From: Methyloligellaceae bacterium
GTDB taxonomy: Bacteria > Pseudomonadota > Alphaproteobacteria > Rhizobiales > Methyloligellaceae
NCBI GenBank assembly: GCA_965228615.1
Contig: CBDDHT010000001.1
Coordinates: 242,371 to 306,370 of the forward strand
DNA length: 64,000 nt
Direction of reading: 5' to 3'
This document shows positions 39,930 through 62,767 of this stretch, in pieces. The notes below the pieces were generated by a model. It saw only the letters and a program-made list of their open reading frames with translations, made no database searches and was not told where the DNA came from. Positions within the stretch are counted from its first letter, which is position 1. Each line of letters opens with the position of its first letter. A program made the position numbers and the translations under genes.

Positions 39930-39932
39930 GAC

Positions 39933-41555: not shown

Positions 41556-41780
41556 TTTCCCTCCTAGATGCTTTGTTCCCGACGGGTCGGCCGCTGCCGT
41601 TCAAACGTTGGGAAAATTAGGGAGATGAGACTCGCGTGATGCACCCTTCGTGCACCCCGCTATTCTCTCACTCTAGCAATATCTATAGGTCCTTCTTTGG
41701 CCGCTTTGCGTGATTGCAGAGACCATAGTGGGGCAACAAATGGATCGACCCATGCCTGTCATGCATTGTGCCTGTCACGT

Positions 41781-46559: not shown

Positions 46560-47087
46560 CTAGCCGGCCTGACGAATGGCCGAGAGGATATCTTGCATCG
46601 CATCGCGAGCCAGTGCCTCGAGCTCATCGCCCGTCCGGTTCTGGATCGGGTGTTCCAGCCATACAATGGCGGGCTGAAAGCCGAGCGTCTTGCTTTGCGC
46701 ATCGACCGCGCTTTCGAACTCGGTCGTCACCACGAAGCAGCCGGGCAGACCGCGCGCGTCCATTTCTTGTATGTCATGCAGACCGCACGACGTGCAGGAG
46801 CCTCAATCGGCGAGGGCTTGGACGACGACGTCCGTCTCTTTCGCGATTTGCGCGAGGAGCGCCGGATCGGCGACCTTGGCATTGGTCGGCTTGGCGTAGC
46901 GCCGCGTGTCGATGCCGCGCTCGCCCAGGAGACGCTCGACATGATCGAGGAAGTCGTCGCTGCGGGTCTTGCCGATATCCATGAGAGCGACAGTCTTGCC
47001 CTCAAGCGTCTCGGGCGGTTGACGGCGGGGCCTTTCGAGAGGCGCGTCTTCCGCCGTCGGGTCGTAGAGTTTTGTCGTGCTGCTCAC
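46560..47087 (-). CDS. UGSC-type selenoprotein (in-frame TGA at 46803..46805 read as selenocysteine)
   Basis: The two ORF-track pieces (46803..47087 and 46560..46763) are in the same frame and are separated only by TGA plus 13 sense codons. The junction reads ..VVQALAD-U-GSCTSCGLHD. A SECIS-like hairpin follows. GTG start with GGGAG 8 nt upstream, overlapping the upstream stop (GTGA). Confidence 0.7.
46773..46791 (-). other. SECIS-like hairpin GUCGUGC-GGUCU-GCAUGAC
   Basis: A 7-bp stem (one G-U pair) with a 5-nt loop, starting 11 nt after the UGA. The loop GGUCU occupies positions 22-26 counted from the U of UGA, the same as in the E. coli fdhF SECIS as I recall it. Confidence 0.65.
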
Positions 47088-48523
47088 AATATAATCTCCC
47101 GCGTAACAGGTTGGAGTTCATCTTTATTGCGCCCGCCGATCCAGCCGGCCATGATGCCGGAAAAGAGCCCGGCGGGTCCTCCGGCACGGACGATGAGAAG
47201 CCCGTCCCGGTGGAACTTGGGCAGCATCTCGTCCGCGCAGCTTTCCGGCATGCCTTCGCCAACACCGTTCGCGCCCTGAACCAGATCCCGCCCCGGGCGC
47301 AGGAGCGCATCATACAATTCTTTGCTGATCTGCGCCCTGTCCCAGCCTGCATTTCGATAGATCGCATAATGCTCAGGCGACAAGACCAGGACAGCGTTGC
47401 ACCACTCGCAAAGTTTTGGATGCACGACCGCGGCGAGCGACATGGCAAGCGAGCGGGTCAACTCTTCCGGCGTTCGCGAACGCTGATCCACAAAGCCCTG
47501 CACCCCGTCGCCCTGAAAGAGTGTAATGGCGCTCTTTCCCGGCGCGATCCCGCGCGACACCGAGAGCGGCTCCCATTCCGGATCGCTCTCATCCTCGGCG
47601 AAGCAGAAGGTATATTTGCCGGGTGTTCCTAGCCCCGCCCGGTCGATTTCTCCAGGCCGCCCGCCGCCAATATTGCGAACGATCAGGTTCAGGGCGCGTC
47701 CGATCGTAGCGTTGGCGCGATTGCCCTGCCCAAGCGCGTTGAAGCCGCCATTCATCCCGATCGAACGGGCGATGGGTCCGTTGACGATGATAATGGGACT
47801 ACAAGGTGCTGTTGAGCAGGTCAGCCCATGAAGCGTGAACATCGGGTCGAGCGCCGTTTCGACCGCGGCGATCACAACGGGAAAATACTCAGGCTTGCAT
47901 CCGGCCATGACAGCATTGATGGCGGCCTTCTCGACCGTTAGCGGTGCCAGGTTGGGCGGGATCATACCGATCACATCGTCCGGCGCACGGTTGGTCCCTG
48001 CAAGCATGCGCAAGAGTCGCGGCCCGGTCGGCGGCACCACCGGCAATCCATCGGTCCATCCGCGCTCGAAGGCCTGTTCGATCTCATCGTCATACTCGCC
48101 AATGTCGACCGAACGCGAGCGAAGCGGCAAGTTTCCGAACCGCGCCTGCAAGACCTCCTGCACGCCCGGATCGATATTCTTGGCGCCGCATCCCGGCTGG
48201 TTCTCCGGGAGATCGGCGCCGAGCTCGTCCTTGCCAAGGAAGTCGCGCCACTCGTTGCGGTTCCATCCGAACACACGGGCTGTTTCGTCCCCAGACGCAT
48301 CGAAACGGATCAATGTCGGAACGACTTCGACGCCGAGTTTGAATGAGGTTTCCAGCGTTCTGTCGTCAATAATGGAAGGTACGCCCTCAGGAAACGCCGG
48401 ATCGTCCTGGGAAATGATCTCAATGCCAGAGCCGTTTGCCGCGAGGTCGCGCAGAACCGGCACTACTAGTTGGCAGGTTGGGCAATCTTGTTTGACAACC
48501 GCGATCAGGCGTTCATTGGGCAT
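47084..48523 (-). CDS. thioredoxin-fold (CPTC) N-terminal domain fused to an uncharacterised ~350-aa conserved domain
   Basis: N-terminus MPNERLIAVVKQDCPTCQLVVPVLRDL (CxxC in a thioredoxin-like context). Translationally coupled to the selenoprotein gene. Confidence 0.7.
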   Translation of the reverse strand: MPNERLIAVVKQDCPTCQLVVPVLRDLAANGSGIEIISQDDPAFPEGVPSIIDDRTLETSFKLGVEVVPTLIRFDASGDETARVFGWNRNEWRDFLGKDELGADLPENQPGCGAKNIDPGVQEVLQARFGNLPLRSRSVDIGEYDDEIEQAFERGWTDGLPVVPPTGPRLLRMLAGTNRAPDDVIGMIPPNLAPLTVEKAAINAVMAGCKPEYFPVVIAAVETALDPMFTLHGLTCSTAPCSPIIIVNGPIARSIGMNGGFNALGQGNRANATIGRALNLIVRNIGGGRPGEIDRAGLGTPGKYTFCFAEDESDPEWEPLSVSRGIAPGKSAITLFQGDGVQGFVDQRSRTPEELTRSLAMSLAAVVHPKLCEWCNAVLVLSPEHYAIYRNAGWDRAQISKELYDALLRPGRDLVQGANGVGEGMPESCADEMLPKFHRDGLLIVRAGGPAGLFSGIMAGWIGGRNKDELQPVTREIIL

Positions 48524-49291: not shown

Positions 49292-50752
49292 CTACCGAAC
49301 TTCACAAATCCGGTCACACGCACTCCGACCGAGCCTAGCCAGCCTGCACTGGTTCACGATGCAGCGGCAGCGATCCTTACATGCCGGCGTCGCCGACCCG
49401 GTTCCGTTACACAAGTTGCTATGACACGCCGCCTCGCTCGCAAAGGTGTAGGCCTGGGTCGACACCGAGGAAGACATCCGACCCGCCAAGCTTCTCGGCA
49501 ATGCCCTGTTGCGATCAGCACCAAGCGCGCGTCCGCTGATGCTGCGGGTCAAGGCCTGCGCCTGTTGGGCTTCTGCGAGTTCCTTGGCCAACCGGCCGCG
49601 TTCATTCACAAGCCCGATTAATTCGGTTTGCGTTTCGATCAGCTCCGCCCGATTTTTTGTGTTGTCGATCCTTACCTTGAAGATTGCCGTGGGTAGCTTG
49701 ATGATCGCATCCGCCACCGTCAGCGGTATCTTGACAAATCCGGCTAGCTCACTGCCCTTTTCGATGTCGACGTCGACAAGCGCTCCGGCGTTGAACTTCA
49801 GGACGGTCTTACGCGTAGCGAAGAATGTCCGGTCAACGCCAATCGCGAGAATCGGTGACTTGTTCTCAAGTGGGACGGCTTTTTGTTTGCGTAGGTTCCA
49901 TCTCACCTCACCTTCGTGCATCGGACTGACATACTTTGCGTTGATGTTGCTCTTGACATAGACCATCAGCGTATAGTTGAGCCGCGGGCGATAGAGAATA
50001 CCCAGTGAGGAGTCAACCGGGGAAATCGTTGGCGCGCGTCGATAATATTGTGACGCCAGAATCGCGTTTTCACGCGATCTGCTGGAGGTCCTTTTCGCGC
50101 CGCGATACTTGGCAAGGAAACCCAAGGGATTCTCGCAATATTCGCCGACTTTGAAATAGCCCATGTCGATGACCCAATCGGCTTCTTGCAGGAGCAGGCA
50201 AAAGCCGAGGTCGTTCAGTGAATCATTGAGAACTGCCGTCTCCATTTCGTCGAACGGGTCGAAATCCGCCTTAAAGGGTTGGACGAAGATACCCCCCACT
50301 GCTCTGGTCCGGAAACTCCTGTCTCCGGATAACCCGGCGAAAACGGTTTCCACCAATGTGTTGGCAATCTCCGGCGTCTTGTCCTCGGCGAAGGACGAAA
50401 TCTCCTGGAGGATCCCCTTCGTTTTTCTGACCGTCAATCGCTCATTGTGCACGGGCGACGTTCTGAAATTCAGGCAATAGCCATGGCGCCGGTCCGGTAC
50501 GGCATGGACCTCCACGGCGTTGAGGACCAGGTTTCCTGATGGCTGCTCCCTCGACTCTCCTTCAGGCGGGGTAACTCTAACGCGAATGACACCTTTAGAT
50601 AGAAAATAGGCGCCTGCGTCTTCTCGGCATGAGACTTCTGATCTGAATTCGCTGATCTGTGTGCTGCCGACCATTGCGCACCCTGCCAGCGAAACAACAA
50701 AGCCGGCAGCTACAATCGAGCCCAGACGGGCATGAGTTCCAAGATTCATCAT
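49292..50752 (-). CDS. lipoprotein A1 of unknown family, with 8-Cys C-terminal tail
   Basis: The start MMNLGTHARLGSIVAAGFVVSLAGC (lipobox) gives an ATGA overlap with the B1 stop. Close paralogue of A2. Confidence 0.75.
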   Translation of the reverse strand: MMNLGTHARLGSIVAAGFVVSLAGCAMVGSTQISEFRSEVSCREDAGAYFLSKGVIRVRVTPPEGESREQPSGNLVLNAVEVHAVPDRRHGYCLNFRTSPVHNERLTVRKTKGILQEISSFAEDKTPEIANTLVETVFAGLSGDRSFRTRAVGGIFVQPFKADFDPFDEMETAVLNDSLNDLGFCLLLQEADWVIDMGYFKVGEYCENPLGFLAKYRGAKRTSSRSRENAILASQYYRRAPTISPVDSSLGILYRPRLNYTLMVYVKSNINAKYVSPMHEGEVRWNLRKQKAVPLENKSPILAIGVDRTFFATRKTVLKFNAGALVDVDIEKGSELAGFVKIPLTVADAIIKLPTAIFKVRIDNTKNRAELIETQTELIGLVNERGRLAKELAEAQQAQALTRSISGRALGADRNRALPRSLAGRMSSSVSTQAYTFASEAACHSNLCNGTGSATPACKDRCRCIVNQCRLARLGRSACDRICEVR

Positions 50753-52209
50753 TGGGATGCTCTCTTCGCGAGTTCTGCGACATTGACGCCCGGACAAAGG
50801 AAGTCCGGCTCCGTCTCAACTCTGATCTTGCCGTCCTTGCCAAGACCGGTCGTCCTGATGTTTGCCAGCGGCTGGCTGCTGAACTCAGCTGGCGCAACAT
50901 CAGCCGGCGGGCTTGGAGCCCTGAGAGCTTTCAGGTGGTTGATTTGCGCGGTAATCAGCCTTTGCTGTGTCTCAACGAGTTGGGCCCTGTTCGACGCGCT
51001 GCTGATCCTGAGCTGTAGAATGCGGGTCGGAAGGGCGACGATGCTCTTCACGACGACAAGCGGTATCTTGACTGCCTCCACAACGGGCGCTGTTTTGCGA
51101 ATGCAGACATTCTGCAGAATCCCGCCGATGAAGACGAGATCTGTGCGGCGCTCCGCGAAGTAGGTGCGCGTCAGGCGGACGGCGACGAGTGGCGAAATGT
51201 TCTCAAGCTGGACTTCTTTTTTGATCTTGAGCCGCCACTCATGTCCTGATTTTTTTTTATCCTTCCTTCGGCCGAACACATAGAGCGTGTAGGACATTTC
51301 CGGTCGGTAGAGAATCCCCTTCGGCAACTCCTCCAAAGGCGTCCGATACTCGTCAAGCAACTCGTGGAAAAAGCGACCACCCACGACTGGGGGTGCCTTC
51401 TTAATCGTCATGATGGGCTTGTCACAGTAATCGTCGATGCGCGCACTTTGGAGATCGAAATTGTAGCCACCCAAGACGGCGCAGAACCCGAAATCTCTCA
51501 AGGCCTGGTTTGCTGCGGCGGTTTGATAAGGCTCGAACGGGTCGAACTCGATGTCCAACACCGTTTCATTGTCACCGAACGTCTGCAGGCGGGCGCTGCC
51601 GCTTAAACCGGCGCCAATATCGAACAGGGACTTGACCAGATCCTGGGCAATCTGCGCGCTACGGTCGATCGCTTTGGAGGACACAATGAACAAAAGGTTG
51701 GTCGTCTTGAGCAGACTTGCGTCCGACTTCCCCGGTATGTCGCTCGCGTCCGCCTCCGGAGTTGTAGCTTTGGCGTCCTTACCCGAAAACAATCCCGGCA
51801 ACGTCTCGCGCAATTCGTCCGGAATAGCGAGCGCCTTACGAACGTAGATTGTATCATCCGCCGTGATCGACCCGCGATATCTTAGGCAATAATTGTGAAG
51901 GCGATCCTCTCTGCGAACTTGCTTTATTTCCTGCAGAACGTATTTTTCCTCTCCCTGCTTTTTTATTTTGAATTTCAGCAGTGATTTCGGCAGTGAGTAA
52001 GAGCCTGCATTGGACTTGCAGGCAATCGGAACCGCTTCGGACCCGACAATCCGCTGGTCTGTCCGCATCATGTCGCATCCAAACGAACCGGTTAAGAGAG
52101 CGGCGAACAGGGCTGCCTTGCTGATGGTCTTATTGGTCTGTTTACGCATGACATCTTTGGATCGCGGCGAACACGCTCCTTCAGCCTGCCGTTTGGTGCC
52201 GAGGATCAT
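50749..52209 (-). CDS. lipoprotein B1 of unknown family (distant homologue of A1/A2)
   Basis: ATGA overlap with the P1 stop. Signal ..KAALFAALLTGSFGC. Close paralogue of B2. An internal start at 52149 (MRKQTNK) is possible. Confidence 0.75.
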   Translation of the reverse strand: MILGTKRQAEGACSPRSKDVMRKQTNKTISKAALFAALLTGSFGCDMMRTDQRIVGSEAVPIACKSNAGSYSLPKSLLKFKIKKQGEEKYVLQEIKQVRREDRLHNYCLRYRGSITADDTIYVRKALAIPDELRETLPGLFSGKDAKATTPEADASDIPGKSDASLLKTTNLLFIVSSKAIDRSAQIAQDLVKSLFDIGAGLSGSARLQTFGDNETVLDIEFDPFEPYQTAAANQALRDFGFCAVLGGYNFDLQSARIDDYCDKPIMTIKKAPPVVGGRFFHELLDEYRTPLEELPKGILYRPEMSYTLYVFGRRKDKKKSGHEWRLKIKKEVQLENISPLVAVRLTRTYFAERRTDLVFIGGILQNVCIRKTAPVVEAVKIPLVVVKSIVALPTRILQLRISSASNRAQLVETQQRLITAQINHLKALRAPSPPADVAPAEFSSQPLANIRTTGLGKDGKIRVETEPDFLCPGVNVAELAKRASQ

Positions 52210-53477
52210 TGTTGGGACCCTTGTGTTGGTGTTATCTCTCCGTCGCAGACGCAGTCTGGCTGCTGGCCGTCAACGACGGGGTCTGGCAACGGCGCTACCT
52301 TGTCGAGCCACGCGCGGACCTGCGGCGTGATAACGCTGTAGATGCCACCGGGACCGCACCTTGCGCCGGAGAAGGCACGGGACGTGATTGCGGCGACGTA
52401 ATAGTTGCTGCCGTCATACAGATAAGCCGGACCGCCGCTATCGCCGCGGCACGTGTCGCGCTGGTAGTACCAGTCGTTGAGGATCATTTCTCGTCCCGGG
52501 ACACAATCCACATAGAGCAGTCCGCCATCGTGGCCGTCGCAGAGCTTCGATCCGATCGCAATGGCAGCGTGGAATTTCGGGCGATCGCCGAAACCGCGAT
52601 CGGTACGGGAATTAATCCCATAACCGACAACAGTCAGGGCGTTCGTCGTCCGCGACAGATAAAGTTCAGGTGGAGCCAGAACAGCCGGTTTCACATTCTC
52701 GGGAGCCGGCCGCCGTAAGAACACCACGGCGATGTCGAAGCCGTACCAGAGACGAGACGTCCGGCTGTACTTCTTGCAGAACCTCTGATCGAACAGCTTG
52801 GTCTTCGTCAGGTCGACATCTCGTCCGACTTGGAGGGCCGCGCTCAGTCTTGAAGGAGCGTTTGCGCCGAATATCGCCAGCAAACGGACCCCGGACAGGT
52901 TTTGCCCCCCAAGCAAGTCACACACACAGTGCCCTGCCGTCAGCACGGCTTCTTCATTAACCAGAACGCCTGTGCACGTGCCCATGGCTGTGCCACCCAT
53001 ATAGGGGCGCAGCGCCACGGCGTGCAGAAAGAAGTCATTCTCCGGAGTGATCCGCTCACCTCCGATGACGCGAAGCCCCAGCTCCGCATCCCGAAGGAAG
53101 CTGTCCACATTGCGACGTGCGACCGGATCCCGATCGAAGGGCGATCGCCGCTCCCGCGCGGCGCGGAGCGCGCCTTTGGTCGGCATTCTGGTCTCATCCG
53201 GCCCACGCTTCACATCACCGAAGACGGCGCGGAGGCCGAACCGCAGCCGCGCCATGTAGGCTGCAGGGTCCCGCTCGTCGAAGGAGCCGACATTCTCCCT
53301 GAGCTTCCTGATGGCGTTGGCTTGGCGAGGTTGGTAGCCCGGCACTCTGAACTTGGCCGTCGCCAGTCTTTCTCTGCGCAAAACGATCGACCGGTCCTGA
53401 GCATATGCGACAATCGTATCGGCAAGAGAGACCGTCACGAGCGTGGCCAGGAGCATAATGGAAAGGTGTGTTTTCAT
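52206..53477 (-). CDS. secreted trypsin-like (S1/chymotrypsin-fold) serine protease zymogen P1
   Basis: Start is trimmed to MKTHLSIMLLATLVTVSLA (signal), 1 nt after the A2 stop. Triad LTAGHCV / DIAVVF / GDSGGP. S1-pocket Asp (RDTCRGDSGGP). Activation-type junction LGLR-VIGGE. Confidence 0.85.
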   Translation of the reverse strand: MKTHLSIMLLATLVTVSLADTIVAYAQDRSIVLRRERLATAKFRVPGYQPRQANAIRKLRENVGSFDERDPAAYMARLRFGLRAVFGDVKRGPDETRMPTKGALRAARERRSPFDRDPVARRNVDSFLRDAELGLRVIGGERITPENDFFLHAVALRPYMGGTAMGTCTGVLVNEEAVLTAGHCVCDLLGGQNLSGVRLLAIFGANAPSRLSAALQVGRDVDLTKTKLFDQRFCKKYSRTSRLWYGFDIAVVFLRRPAPENVKPAVLAPPELYLSRTTNALTVVGYGINSRTDRGFGDRPKFHAAIAIGSKLCDGHDGGLLYVDCVPGREMILNDWYYQRDTCRGDSGGPAYLYDGSNYYVAAITSRAFSGARCGPGGIYSVITPQVRAWLDKVAPLPDPVVDGQQPDCVCDGEITPTQGSQQ

Positions 53478-53478
53478 G

Positions 53479-54948
53479 TCACTCTCCGGCCACACAGAAA
53501 CTGTCACAAGCGCCCTGACCGATGCCGTTCGGAATACACTGGGTGAAAATGCATTGGCAGCGACTCTTGCAGGCCGCTGAAGGCGCGCCATTGGCACCAC
53601 ATTCGCTCCTCTGGCACTGCGCCTCAGACGCATAAGTGTACGGATCTGAGGGGGGCGAAAGTGACAAGGACCGGGCCAGGGAGCGCCCGAAGACAAGCGA
53701 GCCGCCAGTGGCGACCAAGCCGCTTGCCGCCGCGGCGGTCACTGCCCGTGCCTGCTGTTCTTTGGCAAGGTCGCTAGCCAGCTTCTGGCGTCCGTGCTCC
53801 AGCTTGATCAGTTCGGTCTGGGCCTTGATCAGTTCGGCGCGATTCTTCGTGTTGTTTACTCTCAGCTGCAGGATCTTCGTCGGCACCTTGATGATGGCGT
53901 CCGCGATCGTCAGCGGAATCTTGATGAAACCAACGAGTTCGCTGTTCTTTTCGATGTCCACATCGACAAGTGCGCCGGCATTGAACCTCAGGACGGTCTT
54001 GCGCTTGGCGAAGAACGTCCGGTCGACTCCGATTGCAAGGATCGGTGACTTGTTTTCCAGCGGAATGGTTTTCTGCTTGCGCAGGTTCCATCGCACCCCG
54101 CCAGGATGCATGGGACTGATATACTGGGCGTCGATGTTGCTCTTGACATAAACCTTCAGGGTATAGGTCAGGCGCGGGCGATAGAGGATGCCTCGACTGG
54201 AGTCGACAACGCCCGCGCCCGGCGTTTCTCTGAAGGTCTGTGATGCCAGAATTGCACGCTCGCGGATCGCCATAGGTGTCAACTTGGCGCCGCCACGCTT
54301 GGCAAGGAACGTCAGGGGATTATCGCAATACGCACCAGGATCGAATCTGCCCAGGTCAATGACCCAATCGGCTTCCCGCAGCATCATGCAAAAGCCGAGG
54401 TCATTCAGTTCGTCATTGAGAAGGGCTGTCTCCGTTGCGTCGAACGGGTCGAAATCCGCCTTGAAGGGTTGCTGGAATTCGCCGGCGGCGACGCGTGATT
54501 TCGCAAGAGCTTCTCCAGGCAAGTCCTTAAAGACCTGGTCCACCAGGGTGCTGAGCGCGTTTGGCGTTTGGTCCTCGGCAAACGACGAAATCTCCTGCAA
54601 CAGGCCCTTCGTCTTCCGGACCGTCAAGCGCTCATCGTGCAGCGGCGATGATCGAAAGTTCAGGCAGTAGCCATGCCGACGGTCCGGAACCGCATGAACA
54701 CTTACCTCCTGGAGGACAGTGTCGCCATTCTCCACGCTGACATCGACGCTAACGACTCCCTTGGACAGGAAATAGGCACCGGCGTCGTCCCGGCACGTCA
54801 CGTCCAACGTAAGATCACCCAACTGGGTGCTGTCCACCATGGAGCAACTCGCCAAGACCGCGGCCAACGGCAGGGCCGTGAGTGCCACCCCGAGATTGAC
54901 GCGAGAACGCGGCCACCACCAACACCGACTAGTCACGGCCCAGCTCAT
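53479..54948 (-). CDS. lipoprotein A2 of unknown family, with 8-Cys C-terminal tail
   Basis: Signal ..LPLAAVLASC. ATGA overlap with the B2 stop. Collinear with A1. Confidence 0.75.
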   Translation of the reverse strand: MSWAVTSRCWWWPRSRVNLGVALTALPLAAVLASCSMVDSTQLGDLTLDVTCRDDAGAYFLSKGVVSVDVSVENGDTVLQEVSVHAVPDRRHGYCLNFRSSPLHDERLTVRKTKGLLQEISSFAEDQTPNALSTLVDQVFKDLPGEALAKSRVAAGEFQQPFKADFDPFDATETALLNDELNDLGFCMMLREADWVIDLGRFDPGAYCDNPLTFLAKRGGAKLTPMAIRERAILASQTFRETPGAGVVDSSRGILYRPRLTYTLKVYVKSNIDAQYISPMHPGGVRWNLRKQKTIPLENKSPILAIGVDRTFFAKRKTVLRFNAGALVDVDIEKNSELVGFIKIPLTIADAIIKVPTKILQLRVNNTKNRAELIKAQTELIKLEHGRQKLASDLAKEQQARAVTAAAASGLVATGGSLVFGRSLARSLSLSPPSDPYTYASEAQCQRSECGANGAPSAACKSRCQCIFTQCIPNGIGQGACDSFCVAGE

Positions 54949-56384
54949 TGCGCCGACTCCTGCTTTTCGGAATCATCCAGCGCCTGTTGAGCCTGCGACA
55001 CGCGCGAGAAATTGGGACAGACAAAGTCTTCCCCGGTCGTGGGTTCCGCCTTAGAGATGGGACTTGCCTGCGGATCGGTGAACGCCACAGGCACAAATTT
55101 GAACTCCGCTGTCTTCTCTGAAACCTCCCGTTTAGTCATGGCATCGAGCTGGGCTTTTTGTTGCCTCAGAACTTCTTGCTGCGCCTTGACGACCTCGGCC
55201 CTGTTTGACGCGCTGTCGATCTTCAGCTGCAGGATGCGGGTGGGCAGAGCGATGATGCTCTTGACCACGACGAGCGGAAGCTTGACTGCTTCGACCAATG
55301 GAGCTGTCTTTTGAATACAGACGTTCTGCAGGACCCCGCCTATGAAGACCAGATCCGTACGACGCTGGGCGAAATAGGTGCGCGTCAAACGCACAGCGAC
55401 AAGCGGCGAGATGTTCTCAAGTTGGACCTCTTCCTTGAGCTTGAGGAGCCACTCATGCTTGGGATCGGTTTTGTCCTCGTCTCGGCCGAAAACATAGAGC
55501 GTGTAGGTCATTTCCGGGCGGTAGAGAATGCCATTCGGCAGCTCCTCCAATGGTGCCCGGTACTCCGCCAGCAATTCCTCATAATGGTGGCCGTCGACGA
55601 TGGGCGGGGCGGTCTTCAACGTCCCCATCGGGTTATTGCAATACTGATCAATGCGCGCCTGGTGCAGATCGAAATTGTAGCCGCCCAGAACCGCACAAAA
55701 TCCAAGATCCGCCAAGGCCTGATTCGCCTCCGCGGTCTGATAGGGTTCAAACGGGTCGAACTCAATCTCCAGAACCGTTTTCCCTGTGTTGACAAAGAGA
55801 GCCCGGGTGCTCCTGCTGAGCCCTGTACCGATATCGAACACCGATTTGACTAGGTTCTGCACGATCTCCGCGCTGCGATCGATGGCCTTCGACGAGACCA
55901 CATGCAAGAGGTTCGTTAGCTGGAGCAGCTCCGCGTCCGGTCTCGTCACCAGCAGCTCGGCGTCGCCCGTCGCGCGTTCCCTCGCTGTCGTCTGTACGGT
56001 CAACGCTGCTTCAACCAGCTCAGATTTGACGGCTTTTGCCTTGCGGACATAGACCGTGTCGTCCGATGTAATGGCGCCACGGTATTGCAGGCAATAGGTA
56101 TGGAGACGGTCCTCCTTCCTGACTTGCTCGATCGCTTGGAGGACGTGCTCCTTCCTTTTGCCCTGACCGGTCATTTCCTTAACCGTGAAGCGGAGGAATG
56201 ATTTCGGTAGCGCATAGGAGCCCGCATTCGACGTGCACGCGATCGGATCAGCTTCTGACCCGATGATCCGCTGCTCGGTCCGCACCATGTCGCAACCGAG
56301 AAGAAAAGTGACGGATACGCCAACTGCAAAGCCGCCGATTTGCATTATGTTGTTGCGCTTGTGCAATTGACTTTCCCTTCCCAC
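54945..56384 (-). CDS. lipoprotein B2 of unknown family
   Basis: Signal MGRESQLHKRNNIMQIGGFAVGVSVTFLLGC (canonical lipobox). Collinear with B1. Confidence 0.75.
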   Translation of the reverse strand: MGRESQLHKRNNIMQIGGFAVGVSVTFLLGCDMVRTEQRIIGSEADPIACTSNAGSYALPKSFLRFTVKEMTGQGKRKEHVLQAIEQVRKEDRLHTYCLQYRGAITSDDTVYVRKAKAVKSELVEAALTVQTTARERATGDAELLVTRPDAELLQLTNLLHVVSSKAIDRSAEIVQNLVKSVFDIGTGLSRSTRALFVNTGKTVLEIEFDPFEPYQTAEANQALADLGFCAVLGGYNFDLHQARIDQYCNNPMGTLKTAPPIVDGHHYEELLAEYRAPLEELPNGILYRPEMTYTLYVFGRDEDKTDPKHEWLLKLKEEVQLENISPLVAVRLTRTYFAQRRTDLVFIGGVLQNVCIQKTAPLVEAVKLPLVVVKSIIALPTRILQLKIDSASNRAEVVKAQQEVLRQQKAQLDAMTKREVSEKTAEFKFVPVAFTDPQASPISKAEPTTGEDFVCPNFSRVSQAQQALDDSEKQESAQ

Positions 56385-56411
56385 TGTTGCGAAACGCCCG
56401 CGCGTGGATCG

Positions 56412-57617
56412 CTATTTCTTGGTGTATTGAGACAATTCCCTGCAGTTCAAATCCATATTTTGTTTCGATTTGAGCACTAACGACATTTTCCGACCATCTG
56501 TTCCGTCTGCTTGACGGCAAGAAAATTCTATACGCAAATACATCAAATGATCCGGGGTGTGTTTTGATGGGTCACCGCCCGCACAGAATTTGTCTCTAAT
56601 TTTCGACAATTTCTCTACTGACGCGCATGAATAGTGATTAACTCTAAAATCCGTATTTTCTTCTTGATCTTGTGGATCACAAATATTTTGAATGATTTTT
56701 GTTGAGTCACAATATAGTTTTTTATTTTTATCTACGTGTGAATTGGTAAAATCACCAAACGACGCTGCGTTGATGGTTAACCATTTTGTGTCAAAGTAAG
56801 CAGAAATATTCTGATCGACCGATTTAAGTTCGTTGAAGAGCGTGCGAACGGCACTTTCACTGGCATAGTCCAAGACGCGACTATAAGTGTCAGAAATCAC
56901 CTTGATGATCTCCGAAGCAGCCGCCAGCGCGATGTAATCCGGGCATTGGTCTATAAAATTCTCATCGATTGCTTTTCGATACTGTCCGTCATTGATGTAT
57001 TTCACCAATATTCCCAGTTTTTCTTCAGCCGCACCAACAAGAGTTCTGAATTGCAGACCCATGTTGACATTCACAAAATCCTTAAATTGGCTCAAGTCAC
57101 CAACGCGGGCGCCACGATTTTTCATATCTTGAGTGGCTTGATCTAGCGCGACAACTTGTCTGCGTCGCGACACAAAATCTGCAACATCTGCGATTGCTTG
57201 TTCCGCTGCTGAAATTTTCTCCATGAGAATCGTTTTGTTTATTACTTCCACAAGAATGCCCGACGGATTCTGGCTGTTGCTGACGGTGCACTTGCCGGCC
57301 AACGCGTTATGACGTTTCATCAGTTGGCCGTTGGCATAGCTTGTTGAAGAGCACGCTGCGAGCGCCGCCAGCAGCAGCATTACCTGAGCCGCCAAGCTGC
57401 GGCAGACGCATGCGGATCTACAGAGAGGGTCGAGTTTCAGTGCAACTAACTTCCAAAACGGCGTCAATCGTGCTGTGAGGCGCCGTCCCGCAGACTGTAT
57501 TGTCGAAACAAGGGTGGGCGGCGAAAGATAAAAATCCTGTTTGCCAACATAGAAATGGCAAGAATAGTTAGTAATAATATGAGCAATACTGCCACGCGTA
57601 CACATAACAAACTCCAA
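56412..57617 (-). CDS. hypothetical secreted/lipoprotein C (AT-rich gene), first gene of the island operon
   Basis: Long ORF in a visibly AT-rich stretch. Internal signal-like segment ..AAQVMLLLAALAACSS (lipobox). The true start could be as far downstream as 57380. The stop lies 27 nt before B2. Confidence 0.5.
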   Translation of the reverse strand: MEFVMCTRGSIAHIITNYSCHFYVGKQDFYLSPPTLVSTIQSAGRRLTARLTPFWKLVALKLDPLCRSACVCRSLAAQVMLLLAALAACSSTSYANGQLMKRHNALAGKCTVSNSQNPSGILVEVINKTILMEKISAAEQAIADVADFVSRRRQVVALDQATQDMKNRGARVGDLSQFKDFVNVNMGLQFRTLVGAAEEKLGILVKYINDGQYRKAIDENFIDQCPDYIALAAASEIIKVISDTYSRVLDYASESAVRTLFNELKSVDQNISAYFDTKWLTINAASFGDFTNSHVDKNKKLYCDSTKIIQNICDPQDQEENTDFRVNHYSCASVEKLSKIRDKFCAGGDPSKHTPDHLMYLRIEFSCRQADGTDGRKMSLVLKSKQNMDLNCRELSQYTKK

Positions 57618-58330: not shown

Positions 58331-60511
58331 ATGAGCCCGAAAAGCCTCACGTCGAGAACGAGAACACTGGCGAAACACTGCCGATGGCGCACGGCGGCCA
58401 TGCTGATTGTCGGTGGTTTTCTGGCAGCCGCACCACTGGGAGCTGAGGAGCTGCGCCCGCTGAAGGACATCGAAGCGGCAGAATTTGGAGCGCAGCTGAG
58501 CGCGGAGTTTAAGGCTCTGCTCGCTAAGTCTGCGAGAATCAAGCAGATCCTCAACGCAGCCCAAGGGGCTGGGAATTGTCCGATCGAACGTCCGCCCGTG
58601 GTAGGCGTAACAGTAACAATCGTAGAGGGGGTCTTGGCCCATGACCAAACGGTCGTCGGCGCACTCCTGAAGCGTCACAAGCCGACGAACCCATTCCGGC
58701 TCCATTGCAGTGGCACCCTCGCTGATCTGAATTCCAAATGGCGCTCAGTAGACCGGGCCCGACAGGGCATCTTCGTGACAGCAGCGCACTGCATCGCGAC
58801 GGACCCCGACCACAAGGCTGATATCAGCCCCGCGGCCTACAAGGTGTTCCTTCAGCACGCCGGGCTCTTCAATGTGCGGAAGATCCACCTGCAGCGCCTT
58901 GATCTGCCAGATGTCAGTAAAGATATCGCAATATTGGAGTTGGATCGTCCTGTCTCCGGCATCGTGCCAATAAGGCCGCGCGTGGACGACAAGCCTGCAA
59001 ACATTATTCGCGCAATGATTGCCGGTTTCGGACGAACGGGCGGTCTTGCAACGGACTATGGGATGAAACGTAGGGGCAATGTCTGCCTCAAACAATGCCC
59101 GGGAAACGATCGGGATAATTTGTGCTGGGAGTTTCAAAGCTCTTCGGGTCCTCCCGGTGTTGCGTCGAATACATGCAATGGGGACTCAGGCGGCCCTGTC
59201 CTTGTGACTGACACCCGTAAGGTAACACAACTGGCCGGCGTAATCTCAGGCGGCTCAATTGAGAGCTGCCTCAGCGGCGATATTGCCACTAACAGCAGCT
59301 TAAACGCGAACAGTGTGTGGATTGAATCGGTATTGGCGTCAGCCAGCACTGAACAGTCATGCAAGAGGAAGTACTCCAATATCGACCCAGATGACATCTT
59401 GGCCGCGACGGGCGAAATCAAGCTGAATGAGAAAGCAAAACGCTACATATTCAATGTCATTGATGGCCTAGAACATATTCCATTGAATAATGCATTTCAC
59501 CCGTTCGTTCAAAGAAACGAGGCTCGAGGCGCGATATGTCGAACAAGAATCAAAGAAATGAAAACAAAAATGGACAACAAGGAATTTGTTGATCTCAGCT
59601 CCCTCAACACAACATTAGCTGTTTGCTGGCCTCACATTAGAGGTAATATTGGGAATGTATTCTCGCGAGCAAAATTTATTCGCACTAAGTCACCTCAATT
59701 GAAAACGGCTCGCCGAAGCATGCCTCGAGGGATTTGCCGTGACATTGACGACCCGTATAGGCAGCCGAAGAAATGGACCCGCTACCTTGAATGCAGAGCG
59801 CTCCATATCAAAAGAGATTTAAATACCGTCAAAGACCAATTTAAAACAATATATGATTATCTGACGAGATCGGAGAGCGCTGGATACTACAACGATGCAC
59901 CTGATGTTCGGCAATTTGAATTAAAGACAGTGCGTGGCGCAATAATAGAAGCTATGACCTCGATAGATGGAATGATAAACAAAACAAATGATATCATAGA
60001 AATCACGAGAAATTTTTTGAGGAATGAGCCTCTTTTGTCTCGCATCGAGCAATCTGAGATGCATGTGGATGAACTATCGATGGATCCATCTGGTCTCATA
60101 ACCGACGATACTTTGCATCTCAGATCTCTCAGTTCTCCTGACAGATATCTTGTATCTCTCGCCAAGGCGTATGCTCGCCAAATCAACTGGCGGCCGGACC
60201 AAGTGCGTATCGCCATGAATGCGATTGACGATCCACTAAAGCCGGCCAACTTTGACCTGAGAATTGTGCCTCCGGACGGTTCCAAACACGAAAGAGCCTG
60301 CCCAACGATAGCCAATCCCAGCCAGTTTGAGTATTGCCAGATCGATGGTCCTGCCCCTGGAGACTGGACCGTTGCGTTTGCCGAATCTACGAGTGGTACG
60401 GGTCAATTCCAGTTAACGGTTGGGTCGGCGTTCCACAGAAAGGACAAGGACGCTGCAACGCATGGCTCATTCTGCTCCACAACAAACACGGTGCACGCAT
60501 CTCGACAATGA
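58331..60511 (+). CDS. secreted S1 (chymotrypsin-fold) serine protease P2 with long C-terminal extension ending in a PPC-like domain
   Basis: Signal (AAMLIVGGFLAAAPLGA). Triad VTAAHCI / DIAILEL / NGDSGGPV. The ~400-aa C-terminal extension ends with ..GPAPGDWTVAFAESTSGTGQFQLTV, reminiscent of pre-peptidase C-terminal domains. Confidence 0.8.
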   Translation: MSPKSLTSRTRTLAKHCRWRTAAMLIVGGFLAAAPLGAEELRPLKDIEAAEFGAQLSAEFKALLAKSARIKQILNAAQGAGNCPIERPPVVGVTVTIVEGVLAHDQTVVGALLKRHKPTNPFRLHCSGTLADLNSKWRSVDRARQGIFVTAAHCIATDPDHKADISPAAYKVFLQHAGLFNVRKIHLQRLDLPDVSKDIAILELDRPVSGIVPIRPRVDDKPANIIRAMIAGFGRTGGLATDYGMKRRGNVCLKQCPGNDRDNLCWEFQSSSGPPGVASNTCNGDSGGPVLVTDTRKVTQLAGVISGGSIESCLSGDIATNSSLNANSVWIESVLASASTEQSCKRKYSNIDPDDILAATGEIKLNEKAKRYIFNVIDGLEHIPLNNAFHPFVQRNEARGAICRTRIKEMKTKMDNKEFVDLSSLNTTLAVCWPHIRGNIGNVFSRAKFIRTKSPQLKTARRSMPRGICRDIDDPYRQPKKWTRYLECRALHIKRDLNTVKDQFKTIYDYLTRSESAGYYNDAPDVRQFELKTVRGAIIEAMTSIDGMINKTNDIIEITRNFLRNEPLLSRIEQSEMHVDELSMDPSGLITDDTLHLRSLSSPDRYLVSLAKAYARQINWRPDQVRIAMNAIDDPLKPANFDLRIVPPDGSKHERACPTIANPSQFEYCQIDGPAPGDWTVAFAESTSGTGQFQLTVGSAFHRKDKDAATHGSFCSTTNTVHASRQ

Positions 60512-60566: not shown

Positions 60567-61514
60567 CTACAAACGAGCCACCAGCTTTCTGAGCCCCTCC
60601 AGTTCGTGCTCGACATTCTCGATTCGTCGGAGAAACGTCTCCCGCAGCACATCATTGACGCTGACTTCCGCCGCTGCCCTGGCAAATAGCTGATCACGCC
60701 TCCGTCTCGGCGGGTACAGGAATTGAACGCCGTCAATGTCGTCCTGGCTCAACTCCCTATTGGGGATGCCTCTATGGACCTCTGGTCTCATGACGGAGCC
60801 CATTAACTTCACATGATCCATACCCAAAATATGACCGATTTCGTGGAGTGCGACGGTCTCAACGTCAAACTCCTCATCATCGGTATCCACATCGACAGAC
60901 CAATTTCGATCACTGTCATCGAAGCGGATTGGCTTCGGGATTTTATCTTGCGGTGTGTTCCTGGAGCATCCTGGCGGAAAGTCGGCATAAGCGACAACGT
61001 CGCCCTGGCTGTCGAATTTCGAATCATTGCCTGAGACCCAGGCGATATCAACGTGCGGGTTGTCGCTCAAATCAACCTCACGAAAGGTCACAGATTCGGC
61101 CACATCCTGCCACTGGTCGAAGGCCCGTCTTACGGCGTCAAACGCGGCAACATCGCTCAAGGACGAGGGGCCTGCTCCGAAGGCATAGCGAATCTCGCTT
61201 TCTTTCCAAGAGCACTTCGTGCTGAACTCGGTGCCGTTGAGCATGTCTGCAATGCCACATCGTGGCAGGCACATATGATCACGCGTTGCTTTGTCGAATG
61301 TTTCGGTAATGGGACAGCCATTAAATTCCTGGTATTTGCGGAGTGCCAATTGAGTCACCGAATCCAGTTGACAAGGCGTGCAAATGTCCGAAGTTAGATA
61401 ACCCAGCTGGACCAATAAATCCTGGGCTGAGTCAAAACCTTTACGACTCCTTCCCCTTGCTGGCGACCTTACATCCTCGATATTTCTGAATTGAGAATGG
61501 TATCGTCTTGACAT
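60567..61514 (-). CDS. matrixin-like (M10) zinc metalloprotease with PG-binding-like prodomain and cysteine switch
   Basis: HEIGHILGMDH zinc site followed by a Met-turn candidate (GSVMRP). The prodomain has LALRKYQEFNG.. (PGBD-like) and PRCGIAD (compare the MMP cysteine switch PRCGVPD). No obvious signal peptide. Confidence 0.8.
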   Translation of the reverse strand: MSRRYHSQFRNIEDVRSPARGRSRKGFDSAQDLLVQLGYLTSDICTPCQLDSVTQLALRKYQEFNGCPITETFDKATRDHMCLPRCGIADMLNGTEFSTKCSWKESEIRYAFGAGPSSLSDVAAFDAVRRAFDQWQDVAESVTFREVDLSDNPHVDIAWVSGNDSKFDSQGDVVAYADFPPGCSRNTPQDKIPKPIRFDDSDRNWSVDVDTDDEEFDVETVALHEIGHILGMDHVKLMGSVMRPEVHRGIPNRELSQDDIDGVQFLYPPRRRRDQLFARAAAEVSVNDVLRETFLRRIENVEHELEGLRKLVARL

Positions 61515-61744: not shown

Positions 61745-62680
61745 TTACCGATAATTTCTGTTTGATAAATCCGCCGTTGCGACAACGGTGTTCTGGGAGC
61801 TCGGTTCGAGGCCGGTTTGAGGAATTCGCCAGTCATTGCCGCGTGGTCTTGCGGCTTTGCCGCCAAGCGATCGCCGCTCGGATTTCGAGCCGGAGACAAC
61901 GCTGTGCGCTATAGACGAGATGGCCATGGCGATCGAAGTATTCGCACGTGCATTCCCGATACTCCGGATACAGAGATCCATTGGTCCCTTCTGGTGGGCA
62001 AAGAAATGGTCGACAATGGTGCGGATCTTGGAGCGTTTGGCATGGACGTTTGAGACAAAACCGTTCTTTGCGATCCAGGCGTCATTTTGTGGACGATACG
62101 CGGAATCCGCCCAAACGCCGGATGCATTATTGTCCTTGTCCAACAGCCCCGGCAACTGCGCCCCGTCATAGTGCGATGCGTCTCTGGTCTTCCATCGTCG
62201 GATCAGCCCCTGTCAGCACTCAATTCCGACACGGTTATTATGGTAAAGGCAGGAACTGTGATGTTGTTGGCATGCTTCGTGCCGTCCGGCTTTTGTTTGG
62301 CGGGCTTGTCCTTCCAAGCATGCGGATTCTTGCCAGCCTTGATGTCGGCCTTTTCGCCGTCCGAATTACACCGCTTGGGCGCCGCGATAATCGTCGCGTC
62401 AACGATTTGCCGCCCATCGCCAGATAGCCGGATCTGTTGCGGTGTCTATCAAAGCGGGTAAACAGATCGTCCATGGCACAGGCGTCGGTGAGAACCTAAG
62501 CCGATCTTGGATCTAATTTTCACATCTGTCATCGGAGAGATTGTACAGTACCTGCAGAATCAGAACTGGGATGTATCGATTTCGAACAGAGAACCTTGCA
62601 ACCGCTCGTCAACCCATTCGGCTTGAGGTTGTTACCCATGTCTTAGTTACAAACTGTTACCTGTGTCTCCAGGCTGGACA
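61745..62680 (-). pseudogene. decayed IS5-family insertion sequence (transposase with multiple frameshifts, stops and deletions)
   Basis: Minus-strand fragments in shifting frames: EWVDERLQGSLFEID, IPVLILQVLYNLSDD, LTDACAMDDLFTRFDRH, GGQIVDATIIAAPKR, EKADIKAGKNPHAWKDKPAK, LPGLLDKDNNASGVWADSAYR, NGFVSNVHAK, VDHFFAHQK. These are collinear with an IS5-family DDE transposase as recalled. Confidence 0.7.
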
Positions 62681-62690
62681 AAAAAGCAGG

Positions 62691-62767
62691 TGGTGACCCC
62701 GGGAGGACTCGAACCTCCGACCCTCAGATTAGGAATCTGATGCTCTATCCTGCTGAGCTACGGGGCC
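62691..62767 (-). tRNA. tRNA-Arg (anticodon CCU), CCA encoded
   Basis: The reverse complement GGCCCCGTAGCTCAGCAGGATAGAGCATCAGATTCCTAATCTGAGGGTCGGAGGTTCGAGTCCTCCCGGGGTCACCA folds by hand into a cloverleaf. It has a 7-bp acceptor stem, GCTC/GAGC D stem, TCAGA/TCTGA anticodon stem with loop TTCCTAA, and GGAGG/CCTCC T stem with TTCGAGT. Confidence 0.9.

Follow-up and report, generated by a model that had tools for sequence, protein, structure and literature searches.

The stretch of DNA analysed here (the window, 64 kb) contains six tightly packed minus-strand ORFs, C, B2, A2, P1, B1 and A1, located where an earlier note on this DNA had placed them. The gene C, listed as 56412-57617, is followed by B2 (54945-56384; lipobox LLGC, Cys31) and A2 (53479-54948; lipobox LASC, Cys35), the first and second genes of a canonical pair of B-type and A-type lipoproteins. 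Next comes P1 (52206-53477), encoding an S1A trypsin-type serine protease zymogen predicted to be secreted, and then B1 (50749-52209; lipobox SFGC, Cys45) and A1 (49292-50752; lipobox LAGC, Cys25), a second B-A pair that has no protease of its own. Database gene calls were available for A1 (P0001, 100%), A2 (P0002) and B2 (P0008, which begins 6 codons downstream of the listed ORF start). At the sequence level, start and stop codons overlap as ATGA at the B2/A2, P1/B1 and B1/A1 junctions, while 1 nt separates A2 from P1 and 27 nt separate C from B2. Thus, the packing described in the earlier note was verified in the sequence; regarding its proposal that the genes form one coupled unit, the overlapping and 1-nt junctions were seen, and it is from this spacing that co-transcription of the six genes as a single operon is suggested.

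Pairwise alignments gave 60% identity between A1 and A2 (482 aa), 59% between B1 and B2 (470 aa) and 30% between A1 and B1 (413 aa, E 1e-47), in agreement with the earlier view of two paralogue pairs that are themselves distantly homologous. By sequence, B and A are two ancient subfamilies within one unnamed lipoprotein family, which comprises 2803 representative clusters when the threshold is E<=1e-3, or 454 when it is 1e-30, and whose members are labelled in RefSeq/UniProt as hypothetical, lipoprotein or transmembrane protein. The lipobox Cys is present in the four A/B proteins of the window and 122 of 157 homologues match a loose lipobox pattern, the others mostly looking 5′-truncated or carrying a variant box. 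The collinear motifs that the earlier note had listed were seen in the A/B alignments, and most of them are conserved across 121 homologues. Among the residues conserved in these 121 sequences are C42, G47, Y49, C93, D124, D165-P166, C185, C206, G251/Y254/R255/P256, W285, N297, P300, R308, F311, F320, G323, K332, P343 and P354. The two subfamilies differ in their cysteines: B-type proteins combine a core Cys329 with an odd number of tail Cys (103 of 105), whereas in A-type proteins Cys329 is absent and the tail count is even (99 of 99). Accordingly, B2 carries the Cys329 equivalent and a single tail Cys, and A2, devoid of Cys329, has 8 tail Cys that make up two C-x4-C-x9-C-x3-C modules. Judged from the sequences, these patterns are those expected for an oxidising compartment.

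The AlphaFold model of A1 (pLDDT 78) predicts a beta-rich core, a Pro-containing hydrophobic helix (335-359), a long helix (363-406) in which the a/d positions are conserved, and flexible segments. Foldseek searches with this model against PDB and BFVD gave no match, and consequently no pore-former, toxin or gasdermin fold, leaving the idea that A and B are effectors without structural support. Searches of the A/B sequences against Pfam, NCBIfam, PADLOC and PDB sequences were also negative, so that the family remains as unassignable as the earlier note had considered it.

P1 matches the Pfam Trypsin family (E 1.5e-18) and is homologous to the proteases of other cassettes (see below). The triad and the S1-pocket Asp previously proposed were located at H183, D248 and S347, and at Asp341 within RDTCRGDSGGP. 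The protein starts with a signal peptide (∼residues 1-26), followed by a pro-region up to R136 and the junction LGLR|VIGGE, whose predicted activation bond corresponds to codons R136-V137 (53067-53072, minus strand). In PDB alignments, urokinase catalytic chains begin with query residue 137 at chain residue 1, and query residue 136 aligns with residue 2 of pro-granzyme K. The classical junction had therefore been correctly recognised but not the ∼190-aa length given to the pro-region, since signal and pro-region together span 136 aa, or ∼110 aa without the signal peptide. The specificity of the linked proteases is trypsin-type (Arg/Lys), an Asp189 equivalent being present in almost all linked S1 proteases, and about 14 of 34 (∼40%) show a [RK]|[IVM]x[GN]G junction 37-44 residues ahead of the catalytic His.

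The 401-aa ORF of C probably extends too far in the 5′ direction, TTG 57467 being the likelier start, and contains a lipobox (LAAC) at Cys89. The N-terminal part of the protein is helical, and a domain with six Cys lies at the C-terminus. This domain is probably SUEL-type (rhamnose-binding) lectin-like: hhalign gave a 92.5% probability for the C-type domain against a small SUEL alignment, and the Pfam SUEL_Lectin match was sub-threshold only. An HMM built from the C-terminal domain of 15 C-like proteins from outside the window matched C alone among the 284 window ORFs (E 7e-7, residues 280-371).

The two further proteases that had been noted nearby were also found. A divergently oriented gene (58331-60511, plus strand) encodes a 726-aa protein with an N-terminal hydrophobic signal-like segment, an S1 domain (Pfam Trypsin E 1.3e-12) and ∼400 C-terminal aa that match no assigned domain; this neighbour is possibly an accessory protease of the cassette, and extra S1 genes recur close to other cassettes. 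The second is an M10 (matrixin-type) zinc metalloprotease (60567-61514, minus strand; Pfam Peptidase_M10 E 1.1e-27) with a weak PG_binding_1 match (E 0.0019), a neighbour whose membership of the cassette is not established.

Comparison of 58 related loci revealed a canonical unit composed of a C-like gene, B, A and an S1 protease. This cassette of a lectin-like exported protein, two related lipoproteins and a trypsin-like pro-enzyme is real and recurs in soil Alphaproteobacteria, mainly Hyphomicrobiales (Rhizobium, Mesorhizobium, Hyphomicrobium, Devosia, Hoeflea, Bradyrhizobium and others). A protease surrounded by duplicated pairs, which the earlier note took as the design, does not correspond to this unit, the second B-A pair being peculiar to the window. 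B precedes A in every pair able to be scored, S1 is the next same-strand gene in 31 of 34 assessable pair loci, and at least 16 of 27 loci have a C-like gene upstream, window C having the same domain. Downstream there is often a caspase-like C14 protease, a subtilase S8 or a second S1. Signal peptides or lipoboxes were found on C, B, A, S1, C14 and the second S1, while some S8 subtilases have no obvious signal peptide. No published description of the A/B cassette was found in the literature; the set is of importance because lipoproteins without any known relative by sequence or predicted fold stand nearly always beside a protease.

The window locus shows a dip in GC and has a tRNA-Arg at a distance of 5 kb, and homologous cassettes are found on conjugative Rhizobium plasmids beside an IS66 gene. 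These features make the accessory island of the earlier note plausible, although an att repeat was looked for at the locus and not found. A fixed-spacing DNA pattern, with a recall of ∼84% of known members, detected 49 stretches in 185,579 species genomes, and the 49 were confirmed as true members by HMM. Such a rare and patchy distribution, with plasmid-borne and sometimes duplicated copies and absence from most relatives, would be unexpected for an envelope housekeeping or quality-control module in which B/A would be adaptors for processing or turnover of outer-membrane or cell-wall components. We consider this explanation very improbable, even though the location would be periplasmic or membrane-bound and some loci have peptidoglycan-related neighbours (the weak PG_binding_1 match on the window M10 and a Peptidase_M15_4 in locus L003).

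The clustering of several proteases (S1, C14, S8, M10, M15_4) with a lectin-like protein, in an accessory and plasmid-borne location, could also reflect independent exported factors grouped for co-regulation, for example a pair of surface adhesin or nutrient-capture lipoproteins, degradative proteases and a lectin used in foraging or in interaction with a host or plant, none of them necessarily being the substrate of another. This is quite improbable, because B, A and S1 keep this order, their stop and start codons overlapping, across widely divergent members, and protease adjacency persists even in single-copy members of other phyla, which together argue for direct functional dependence. Indeed, the question whether A/B homologues are linked to proteases elsewhere was answered not only by the pair loci but also by these single copies, family members being flanked by proteases of three unrelated clans: S8 (loci L010 and L035), C14 (L029) and Trypsin_2 (L048 and L050).

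Dependence might mean that B/A, anchored in the membrane, control the protease instead of being cleaved by it, whether as cognate inhibitors or immunity proteins protecting the envelope of the producer, as a membrane tether, or as a zymogen foldase/activator. Translational coupling and strict adjacency suggest a complex, and there are precedents in protease-inhibitor operons and in the lipoprotein partners of envelope proteases (NlpI-Prc, LbcA-CtpA, PrtM-PrtP). Nevertheless, A/B resemble no inhibitor, TPR adaptor or foldase family, two conserved proteins of ∼45 kDa would be unusually large for inhibitors, and B/A are more conserved than the protease. Moreover, neighbours of three unrelated folds (S1/Trypsin_2, S8, C14) are hard to square with fold-specific inhibition or chaperoning; a bait-and-trap inhibitor would be the exception, but no thioester-type features were seen in A/B. 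We therefore regard this explanation as unlikely. Non-homologous replacement of the protease beside the family fits a substrate role better than a fold-specific inhibitor, foldase or adaptor.

The best explanation, which we favour tentatively and with slightly less than even confidence, is that the window holds a conserved extracytoplasmic cassette, the products of which are all exported, in a single copy that includes an additional B-A pair. Gene linkage suggests, with the same reserve, that the linked proteases process the B/A pair, which would be a disulfide-locked pro-protein. B and A would be lipid-anchored via the N-terminal Cys and, as paired genes and the heptad pattern suggest, may form a heteromer through conserved C-terminal heptad helices, the helical C-terminal part of B being closed into a loop by a putative Cys329-to-tail disulfide. 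P1 would be secreted as a zymogen, activated by a cut at R136|V137 made by itself or by another cassette protease, and would then cleave B/A after Arg/Lys within flexible basic segments, the candidate sites being a hairpin loop (267-284), a hinge (356-364) that contains R/K361 and the disordered linker past the coiled coil. Cleavage could turn a latent disulfide-held pro-protein into an active one, on the model of two-chain toxins that are nicked or of gasdermins cut by their proteases; lectin-like C might supply carbohydrate binding for targeting or sensing, and the output might be membrane damage, adhesion or envelope defence. Several observations count against processing. The flexible segments contain no invariant basic residue (position 361 is R/K in 85 of 121 sequences, and the basic hairpin loop varies), a classical activation junction is recognisable in the minority of linked proteases mentioned above, the second B-A pair lacks its own protease, and some S8 subtilases lack an obvious signal peptide. 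Also, tight translational coupling and the near 1:1:1 gene dosage fit a stable B/A/protease complex equally well.

Among known systems, NlpI-Prc, LbcA-CtpA and PrtM-PrtP resemble the cassette in having a lipoprotein whose function is tied to an exported protease, and the inhibitors of AprA-AprI/Inh and staphopain-staphostatin resemble it in being operon-linked as well. In these systems the partner is a TPR protein, a PPIase-like foldase or a small inhibitor and the protease belongs to S41, S8, M10 or C47, whereas A/B show no such fold or domain and occur with three protease clans. The lectin-started zymogen cascades of animals (lectin complement pathway, horseshoe-crab clotting, insect Toll/prophenoloxidase) offer what would be a pure analogy, as CLIP, CUB and Sushi modules are absent and B/A are unrelated to coagulogen, Spaetzle or complement proteins. 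Both nevertheless combine a lectin-like protein with S1A proteases, Arg|Ile/Val-x-Gly-Gly junctions, Asp189 and several basic-P1 proteases in one cluster, outside the cytoplasm.

Bacterial gasdermin operons (gasdermin with a C14, S1, S8 or CHAT protease) are cytoplasmic, while the cassette is all exported, with signal peptides, lipoboxes and conserved disulfides. Furthermore, the cassette has no gasdermin fold by Foldseek, its A/B proteins of ∼440-490 aa form an obligate B/A pair, and the proteases in cassettes with such a pair carry no fused repeat or NTPase sensor domains, unlike those of gasdermin systems. The cassette resembles them in placing an N-terminally lipidated protein beside S1, C14 or S8 protease(s), in its accessory, patchy distribution, and in a C-terminal segment that could act as a latch. 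Nicked disulfide-held protoxins (diphtheria toxin, botulinum neurotoxin, Pseudomonas exotoxin A) and those activated by trypsin-like enzymes (proaerolysin, epsilon-toxin) have no sequence or fold similarity to A/B, which are predicted to be lipid-anchored instead of released and whose protease is encoded in cis. As in the cassette, these toxins are exported precursors associated with an Arg/Lys-specific enzyme, and a cut in the long loop of B-type proteins, closed by a putative disulfide, would likewise leave two joined chains.

The six ORFs that the earlier note had placed on the minus strand were all found exactly as given there, namely C (56412-57617), B2 (54945-56384), A2 (53479-54948), P1 (52206-53477), B1 (50749-52209) and A1 (49292-50752). 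The junction sequences bore out the claimed packing, with ATGA stop/start overlaps at B2/A2, P1/B1 and B1/A1 and a gap of 1 nt at A2/P1, and placed C 27 nt ahead of B2. The relationships proposed within the unit also held: A1 and A2 shared 60% identity, B1 and B2 shared 59%, and A and B were homologous to each other (30% identity between A1 and B1 over 413 residues, E = 1e-47). Identity between the cores of the two B-A pairs at the DNA level was only 70-72%, indicating that the duplication is old. We rejected the idea that a second protease had been lost from the unit, having found no protease remnant behind A1. Overall, the finding proved real and its description largely accurate.

As had been claimed, the signal sequences of A1, A2, B1 and B2 all close with a lipobox Cys (LAGC, LASC, SFGC and LLGC, respectively). 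On the usual combination of an N-terminal charged region, a hydrophobic stretch and a lipobox ([LVI][ASTVI][GAS]C), all four are predicted to be lipidated. A loose lipobox pattern was present in 122 of 157 homologues, most of the others being truncated. In B1 and B2 the lipobox Cys (codons at window positions 52077 and 56294) is followed at +2 by an Asp, which in E. coli is an inner-membrane retention signal. We considered a split of the lipoproteins between inner and outer membrane and dropped it because the +2 Asp is specific to B1 and B2 of this window and is not a family feature, the homologues having mostly S, A, T, N or Q.

The two further proteases reported nearby were confirmed. One is a 726-aa protein (58331-60511, plus strand) with a signal-like N-terminus, an S1 domain at ~146-322 and a C-terminal part of ~400 aa that matched nothing in Pfam or NCBIfam. 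The other is an M10 matrixin-type metalloprotease (60567-61514, minus strand) with a weak PG_binding_1 match and no obvious signal peptide; its similarity to the NCBIfam 'myxosortase-dependent metalloprotease' model was partial and far below threshold. GC content falls to 45-52% over 56-64 kb, compared with 55-61% elsewhere in the window, and a tRNA-Arg(CCT) gene lies at 62691-62767 (minus strand), ~5 kb beyond C. The GC dip and the tRNA are suggestive of a genomic island. We looked for an att-like direct repeat of the tRNA-Arg end that would mark a tRNA-bounded island and found none; the window DNA had no match among PLSDB plasmids, and a transposase assignment for the ORF at 61745-62155 was unsupported by Pfam or NCBIfam. 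On the other side of the unit, the ORF directly downstream of A1 (47084-48523, minus strand, 479 aa) has an N-terminal thioredoxin-like CPTC motif and matched nothing in either Pfam or NCBIfam. At 36725-42830 (minus strand), a cyclic-nucleotide-binding protein with 4Fe-4S domains is flanked by a cluster of multihaem c-type cytochromes (MtrC/MtrF-like and c554-like). The upstream genes are ordinary chromosomal ones, coding for an amidohydrolase, an ornithine cyclodeaminase-family protein and multihaem cytochromes.

The earlier note could name no family for A and B, and profile searches of Pfam, NCBIfam and PADLOC gave the same outcome. None of A1, A2, B1 and B2 matched a Pfam family at E ≤ 0.1, their NCBIfam matches were at chance level, and ten divergent and eight unusually long homologues had no relevant curated-family match in the three collections. 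Likewise, neither phmmer nor a profile of 121 sequences found a relative among PDB sequences (best E with the profile, 0.12). A word-indexed search had returned only seven homologues, as if the family were very rare; this was overturned when 1.84 billion cluster representatives were searched exhaustively with an HMM, which identified 2803 members at E ≤ 1e-3, 454 of them at E ≤ 1e-30. Where the source gave members a name, it was 'hypothetical protein', 'Lipoprotein' or 'Transmembrane protein'. We then modelled A1 with AlphaFold. The 121-sequence alignment yielded a model with pLDDT 78 and pTM 0.61, and one of 9 sequences yielded an unusable model (pLDDT 56). The model comprises a beta-rich core with long strands (~26-332), a hydrophobic helix with two invariant prolines predicted at lower confidence (335-359), a long helix (363-406), a disordered linker and a small Cys-rich helical tail. 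Comparison of this model by Foldseek, a check that the earlier note had proposed, revealed no relative of the fold in PDB or BFVD (best E 0.085 and 0.1, respectively, against a threshold of E ≤ 0.001, with all TM-scores ≤ 0.21). No known toxin or pore-former, alpha-2-macroglobulin, LolA/LptE-type lipoprotein or gasdermin appeared at meaningful Foldseek scores. From these searches we concluded that A and B belong to a sizeable unnamed lipoprotein family, with no sequence or fold relative detectable in Pfam, NCBIfam, PADLOC, PDB or BFVD.

Analysis of residue conservation across the 121 sequences showed that the lipobox Cys, four core Cys (42, 93, 185 and 206) and G47, Y49, D124, P166, W285, N297 and G323 are invariant. 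The best-conserved stretch of the family is K332-SEL-x-GFV-x-IPL-...-LP-...-[RK]361, and it is followed by a helix with conserved hydrophobic residues at 371, 374, 378, 381, 385 and 389, whose spacing of 3-4 is that of a coiled coil. Cysteines of the C-terminal tail covary with Cys329. Where Cys329 is present, the tail holds an odd number of Cys in 103 of 105 proteins, almost always one; where it is absent, the number is even in all 99 proteins (0, 2, 4, 6, 8 or 10), A1 and A2 carrying two C-x4-C-x9-C-x3-C modules. This pattern suggests that in B-type proteins a disulfide from Cys329 to the tail would close the helical C-terminal part into a loop and that A-type tails would form self-contained disulfides. 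It is also an independent indication of an oxidising, extracytoplasmic location. The two types define two subfamilies, and in every locus with both genes scorable the B-type gene came before the A-type gene.

P1 had been described as a trypsin-like protease, and Pfam PF00089 (Trypsin) recognised it with 67.9 bits (cut-off 20.6; E = 1.5e-18). The catalytic triad lies in canonical motifs, TAGHC (H183), DIAV (D248) and GDSGG (S347), and the Asp reported for the S1 pocket (equivalent to position 189) is D341 in RD341TCRGDSGGP, from which specificity for Arg/Lys is predicted. The claim that P1 is made as a zymogen stood with respect to the activation junction, LGLR136↓V137IGGE, and needed correction with respect to the pro-region, put at ~190 aa: signal and pro-region together actually amount to 136 aa. 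The nearest solved relatives of P1 are factor Xa, granzyme K, plasmin and urokinase. Alignments with the urokinase catalytic chain start at P1 residue 137, which is residue 1 of the activated chain, and this supports the junction as a classical activation bond; the pro-granzyme K alignment starts at P1 residue 136, its residue 2. The predicted bond has the form expected in family S1A, a basic residue followed by an [IV]-x-G-G N-terminus aligned with Ile16. Nearly all S1 proteases linked to the lipoprotein genes keep the Asp189 equivalent (D[TS]C.GDSGG), and in ~14 of 34 of them a classical [RK]↓[IVM]x[GN]G junction was recognisable at the right distance from the catalytic His.

To survey gene neighbourhoods, we inspected the contigs of five homologues and found a Pfam Trypsin gene after two neighbouring family members, with a Peptidase_C14 or Peptidase_S8 gene next in several of them. 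We also designed a degenerate DNA pattern of fixed spacing (N..P-7-R..F-8-F..G.L-6-K-10-P-10-P), which recovered 132 of 157 known members. The window contained four matches to it and each of eight known loci exactly two, where none is expected by chance. Scanning one genome per species for 185,579 species returned 49 stretches, all 49 of which were true members by HMM. Nearly all came from Hyphomicrobiales; the groups represented include Mesorhizobium, Rhizobium, Hyphomicrobium, Devosia, Hoeflea, Nitratireductor, Aquibium, Bradyrhizobium, Rhodoplanes, Xanthobacteraceae and Methyloligellaceae, plus Roseobacter. A few single-copy members occurred in Nitrospirales, Desulfovibrio, Verrucomicrobiia, Victivallis and Planctomycetaceae.

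The expected co-occurrence with S1 proteases was evident in these loci. Of the 34 pair loci whose downstream sequence was long enough, 31 have an S1 protease as the next gene on the same strand; B1-A1 of the window, placed directly after P1, is among the exceptions. Genes found repeatedly beyond the S1 gene code for C14 caspase-domain proteins (640-730 aa), S8 subtilases or a second S1 protease. Single-copy members adjoin genes for S1 (loci L013, L016, L024, L046 and L057), S8 (L010 and L035), C14 (L029) or Trypsin_2 proteases (L048). In a Parvularculaceae MAG (L050, 280-3909, minus strand) a single member is followed by a 1209-aa protein with Trypsin_2 and a WD40 beta-propeller, with a divergent S1 gene opposite. 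The A/B family sits in a conserved, exported, multi-protease cassette, with near-obligatory protease adjacency and two ancient lipoprotein subfamilies in fixed order. That the lipoproteins and the proteases are independent factors, merely co-regulated, we regard as improbable, and a role in envelope housekeeping as more improbable than any other reading considered here.

Several cassettes are found in cultured strains, including R. leguminosarum WSM1325 (Rleg_5446-5451, on pR132503), Hyphomicrobium facile DSM 1565 and Mesorhizobium huakuii NBRC 15243. On two conjugative Rhizobium plasmids the cassette has six genes, annotated only as three hypothetical proteins, an S1 family peptidase, a caspase family protein and a serine protease, and on one of these plasmids an IS66 gene lies immediately 3′ of the cassette. 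In three loci (L014 5878-7116, L018 182-1312 and L056 3715-4767) the S1 gene is followed by an S8 subtilase with no obvious N-terminal signal peptide, whereas the S1 and C14 components do have signal peptides. A metagenomic protein of 746 aa (P0075) consists of an A-type member whose sequence leads on into the first part of a trypsin domain (residues 573-623 by Pfam Trypsin); it is either naturally fused or the product of read-through from the A gene into the S1 gene. One locus (L026) has three lipoprotein genes ahead of the S1 gene, in the order B, B, A, S1, and several genomes hold two cassettes (L012 and L014 on one Methyloligellaceae chromosome; L020 and L046 on a contig of Mesorhizobium sp. 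GbtcB19). The window is therefore not alone in showing copy-number variation of lipoprotein genes or whole cassettes within one genome, which is also seen at L024. A literature search using accessions, locus tags and keywords found no published description of the cassette; the operon mentioned in PMC3501461 (Asplund-Samuelsson et al. 2012, 'Metacaspases in Operons') might be its six-gene version.

The ORF of C is probably over-extended at its start, the likely start codon being TTG at 57467, and contains a lipobox of its own at Cys89 of the ORF. In at least 16 of 27 loci a relative of C lies upstream of the lipoprotein genes, and it frequently overlaps the start of B by 4 nt. These relatives begin with a signal peptide, continue with an N-terminal part that is helical and in places repetitive, and end in a ~120-aa C-terminal domain carrying six invariant Cys and the motifs h-I-x-x-A-x-[FY]GD, C[DN]AT, LCG[YF][DNE]P[AIV]P and L-x-V-x-Y-x-C. 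An HMM of this domain built without the window sequence matched C alone among the 284 window ORFs (E = 7e-7). Pfam, NCBIfam and PADLOC returned nothing for C, and none of ten relatives exceeded the cut-off of Pfam PF02140 (SUEL_Lectin; 31.4 bits), two of them scoring 12-14 bits (E = 0.09 and 0.26) and C itself giving no match. Three of the five best matches among PDB sequences were SUEL lectins (CSL3, ADGRL2 and latrophilin-1), weak in score (E = 0.19-1.9) and with the hallmark motifs in register (h-I-x-x-A-x-YG, paired Cys, DP-x-P and L-x-V-x-Y-x-C). Using hhalign against a four-sequence SUEL alignment we obtained 92.5% probability and E = 4.8e-7 over 69 columns, an optimistic E-value because that alignment was built from fragments chosen by the preceding PDB search. 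For the same reason we grade it as only probable, from sequence resemblance, that the C-terminal domain of C is like SUEL-type (rhamnose-binding) lectins.

How might such a cassette work? The reading we tentatively favour is that B/A are a pro-protein cleaved by the linked proteases. The proteases found beside family members belong to three unrelated clans, which points to a need for proteolysis as such and favours a substrate over an inhibitor, foldase or adaptor; this is the strongest comparative argument for the substrate role. B and A would associate on the membrane via their heptad helices, P1 would be activated at R136↓V137, and the active protease or proteases would cut B/A after Arg/Lys in flexible basic segments, turning a disulfide-held pro-form into an active form. 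Candidate sites are a hairpin loop (267-284, with a median of 2-3 R/K per 10 residues), the low-confidence hinge at 356-364 (R/K361 in 85 of 121 sequences) and the linker after the coiled coil. Against this reading, no single candidate site is invariant, and the tight gene coupling would also be compatible with a stable complex. Control or inhibition of the protease by B/A seems unlikely, given the three unrelated clans and the lack of a match to TPR/S41 adaptor systems or known inhibitor families in Pfam, NCBIfam or the Foldseek comparison with PDB.

A broader reading, which we consider very unlikely, takes the whole cassette as an extracytoplasmic recognition-and-protease cascade with a lectin sensor and a B/A effector. 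At the cell surface or in the periplasm, the SUEL-lectin-like C would recognise a glycan that is foreign or damaged and so activate the trypsin-type zymogen, and the orthocaspase, second S1 protease or subtilase would relay or amplify the signal. The proteases would then nick a disulfide-locked B/A heteromer, freeing the conserved hydrophobic, Pro-containing helix to act on a membrane, be it the producer's (abortive defence) or an attacker's.

Should the substrate model be right, the cassette, represented by thousands of metagenome sequence clusters, would be a widespread unrecognised envelope system of soil- and plant-associated Alphaproteobacteria, run by zymogen-type proteases, and would provide a new class of protease-controlled extracytoplasmic effectors, a new protein fold and a function for many secreted bacterial proteins annotated 'S1 family peptidase' or 'caspase family', whose genes are at present orphans. 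Zymogen-type proteases are best known from animal blood clotting and immunity, and zymogen cascades initiated by lectins from complement and arthropod clotting; the cascade, if real, would be a prokaryotic counterpart of the latter with a new effector fold. Whatever the mechanism, family definitions are merited both for B/A and for the C-terminal domain of C, and the conserved cassette offers a concrete gene set for deletion, also in cultured strains.

By comparison with Pfam, NCBIfam, PADLOC, PDB and BFVD, the cassette fits under no known kind of system. PADLOC gave no meaningful match to anti-phage defence, just weak protease-domain similarity to LmuA and Avs1b. In NlpI-Prc and LbcA-CtpA a TPR lipoprotein is paired with an S41 protease, whereas the cassette has no TPR or S41 match in Pfam or NCBIfam. 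Bacterial gasdermin systems resemble it in their adjacent S1, C14 or S8 protease genes and in the flanking by proteases of different clans. However, no gasdermin fold was among the Foldseek PDB matches listed, none of which fell below E = 0.08, and instead of the cytoplasmic location of gasdermins the cassette has signal peptides, lipoboxes and conserved, covarying Cys. Taken together, the cassette is a member of neither the gasdermin systems nor the nicked toxins nor the animal lectin cascades; by analogy, it would work most like protease-activated pro-protein systems such as nicked two-chain toxins and gasdermin/protease pairs, and its lectin-like component and zymogens may recall the lectin-initiated cascades of animals.
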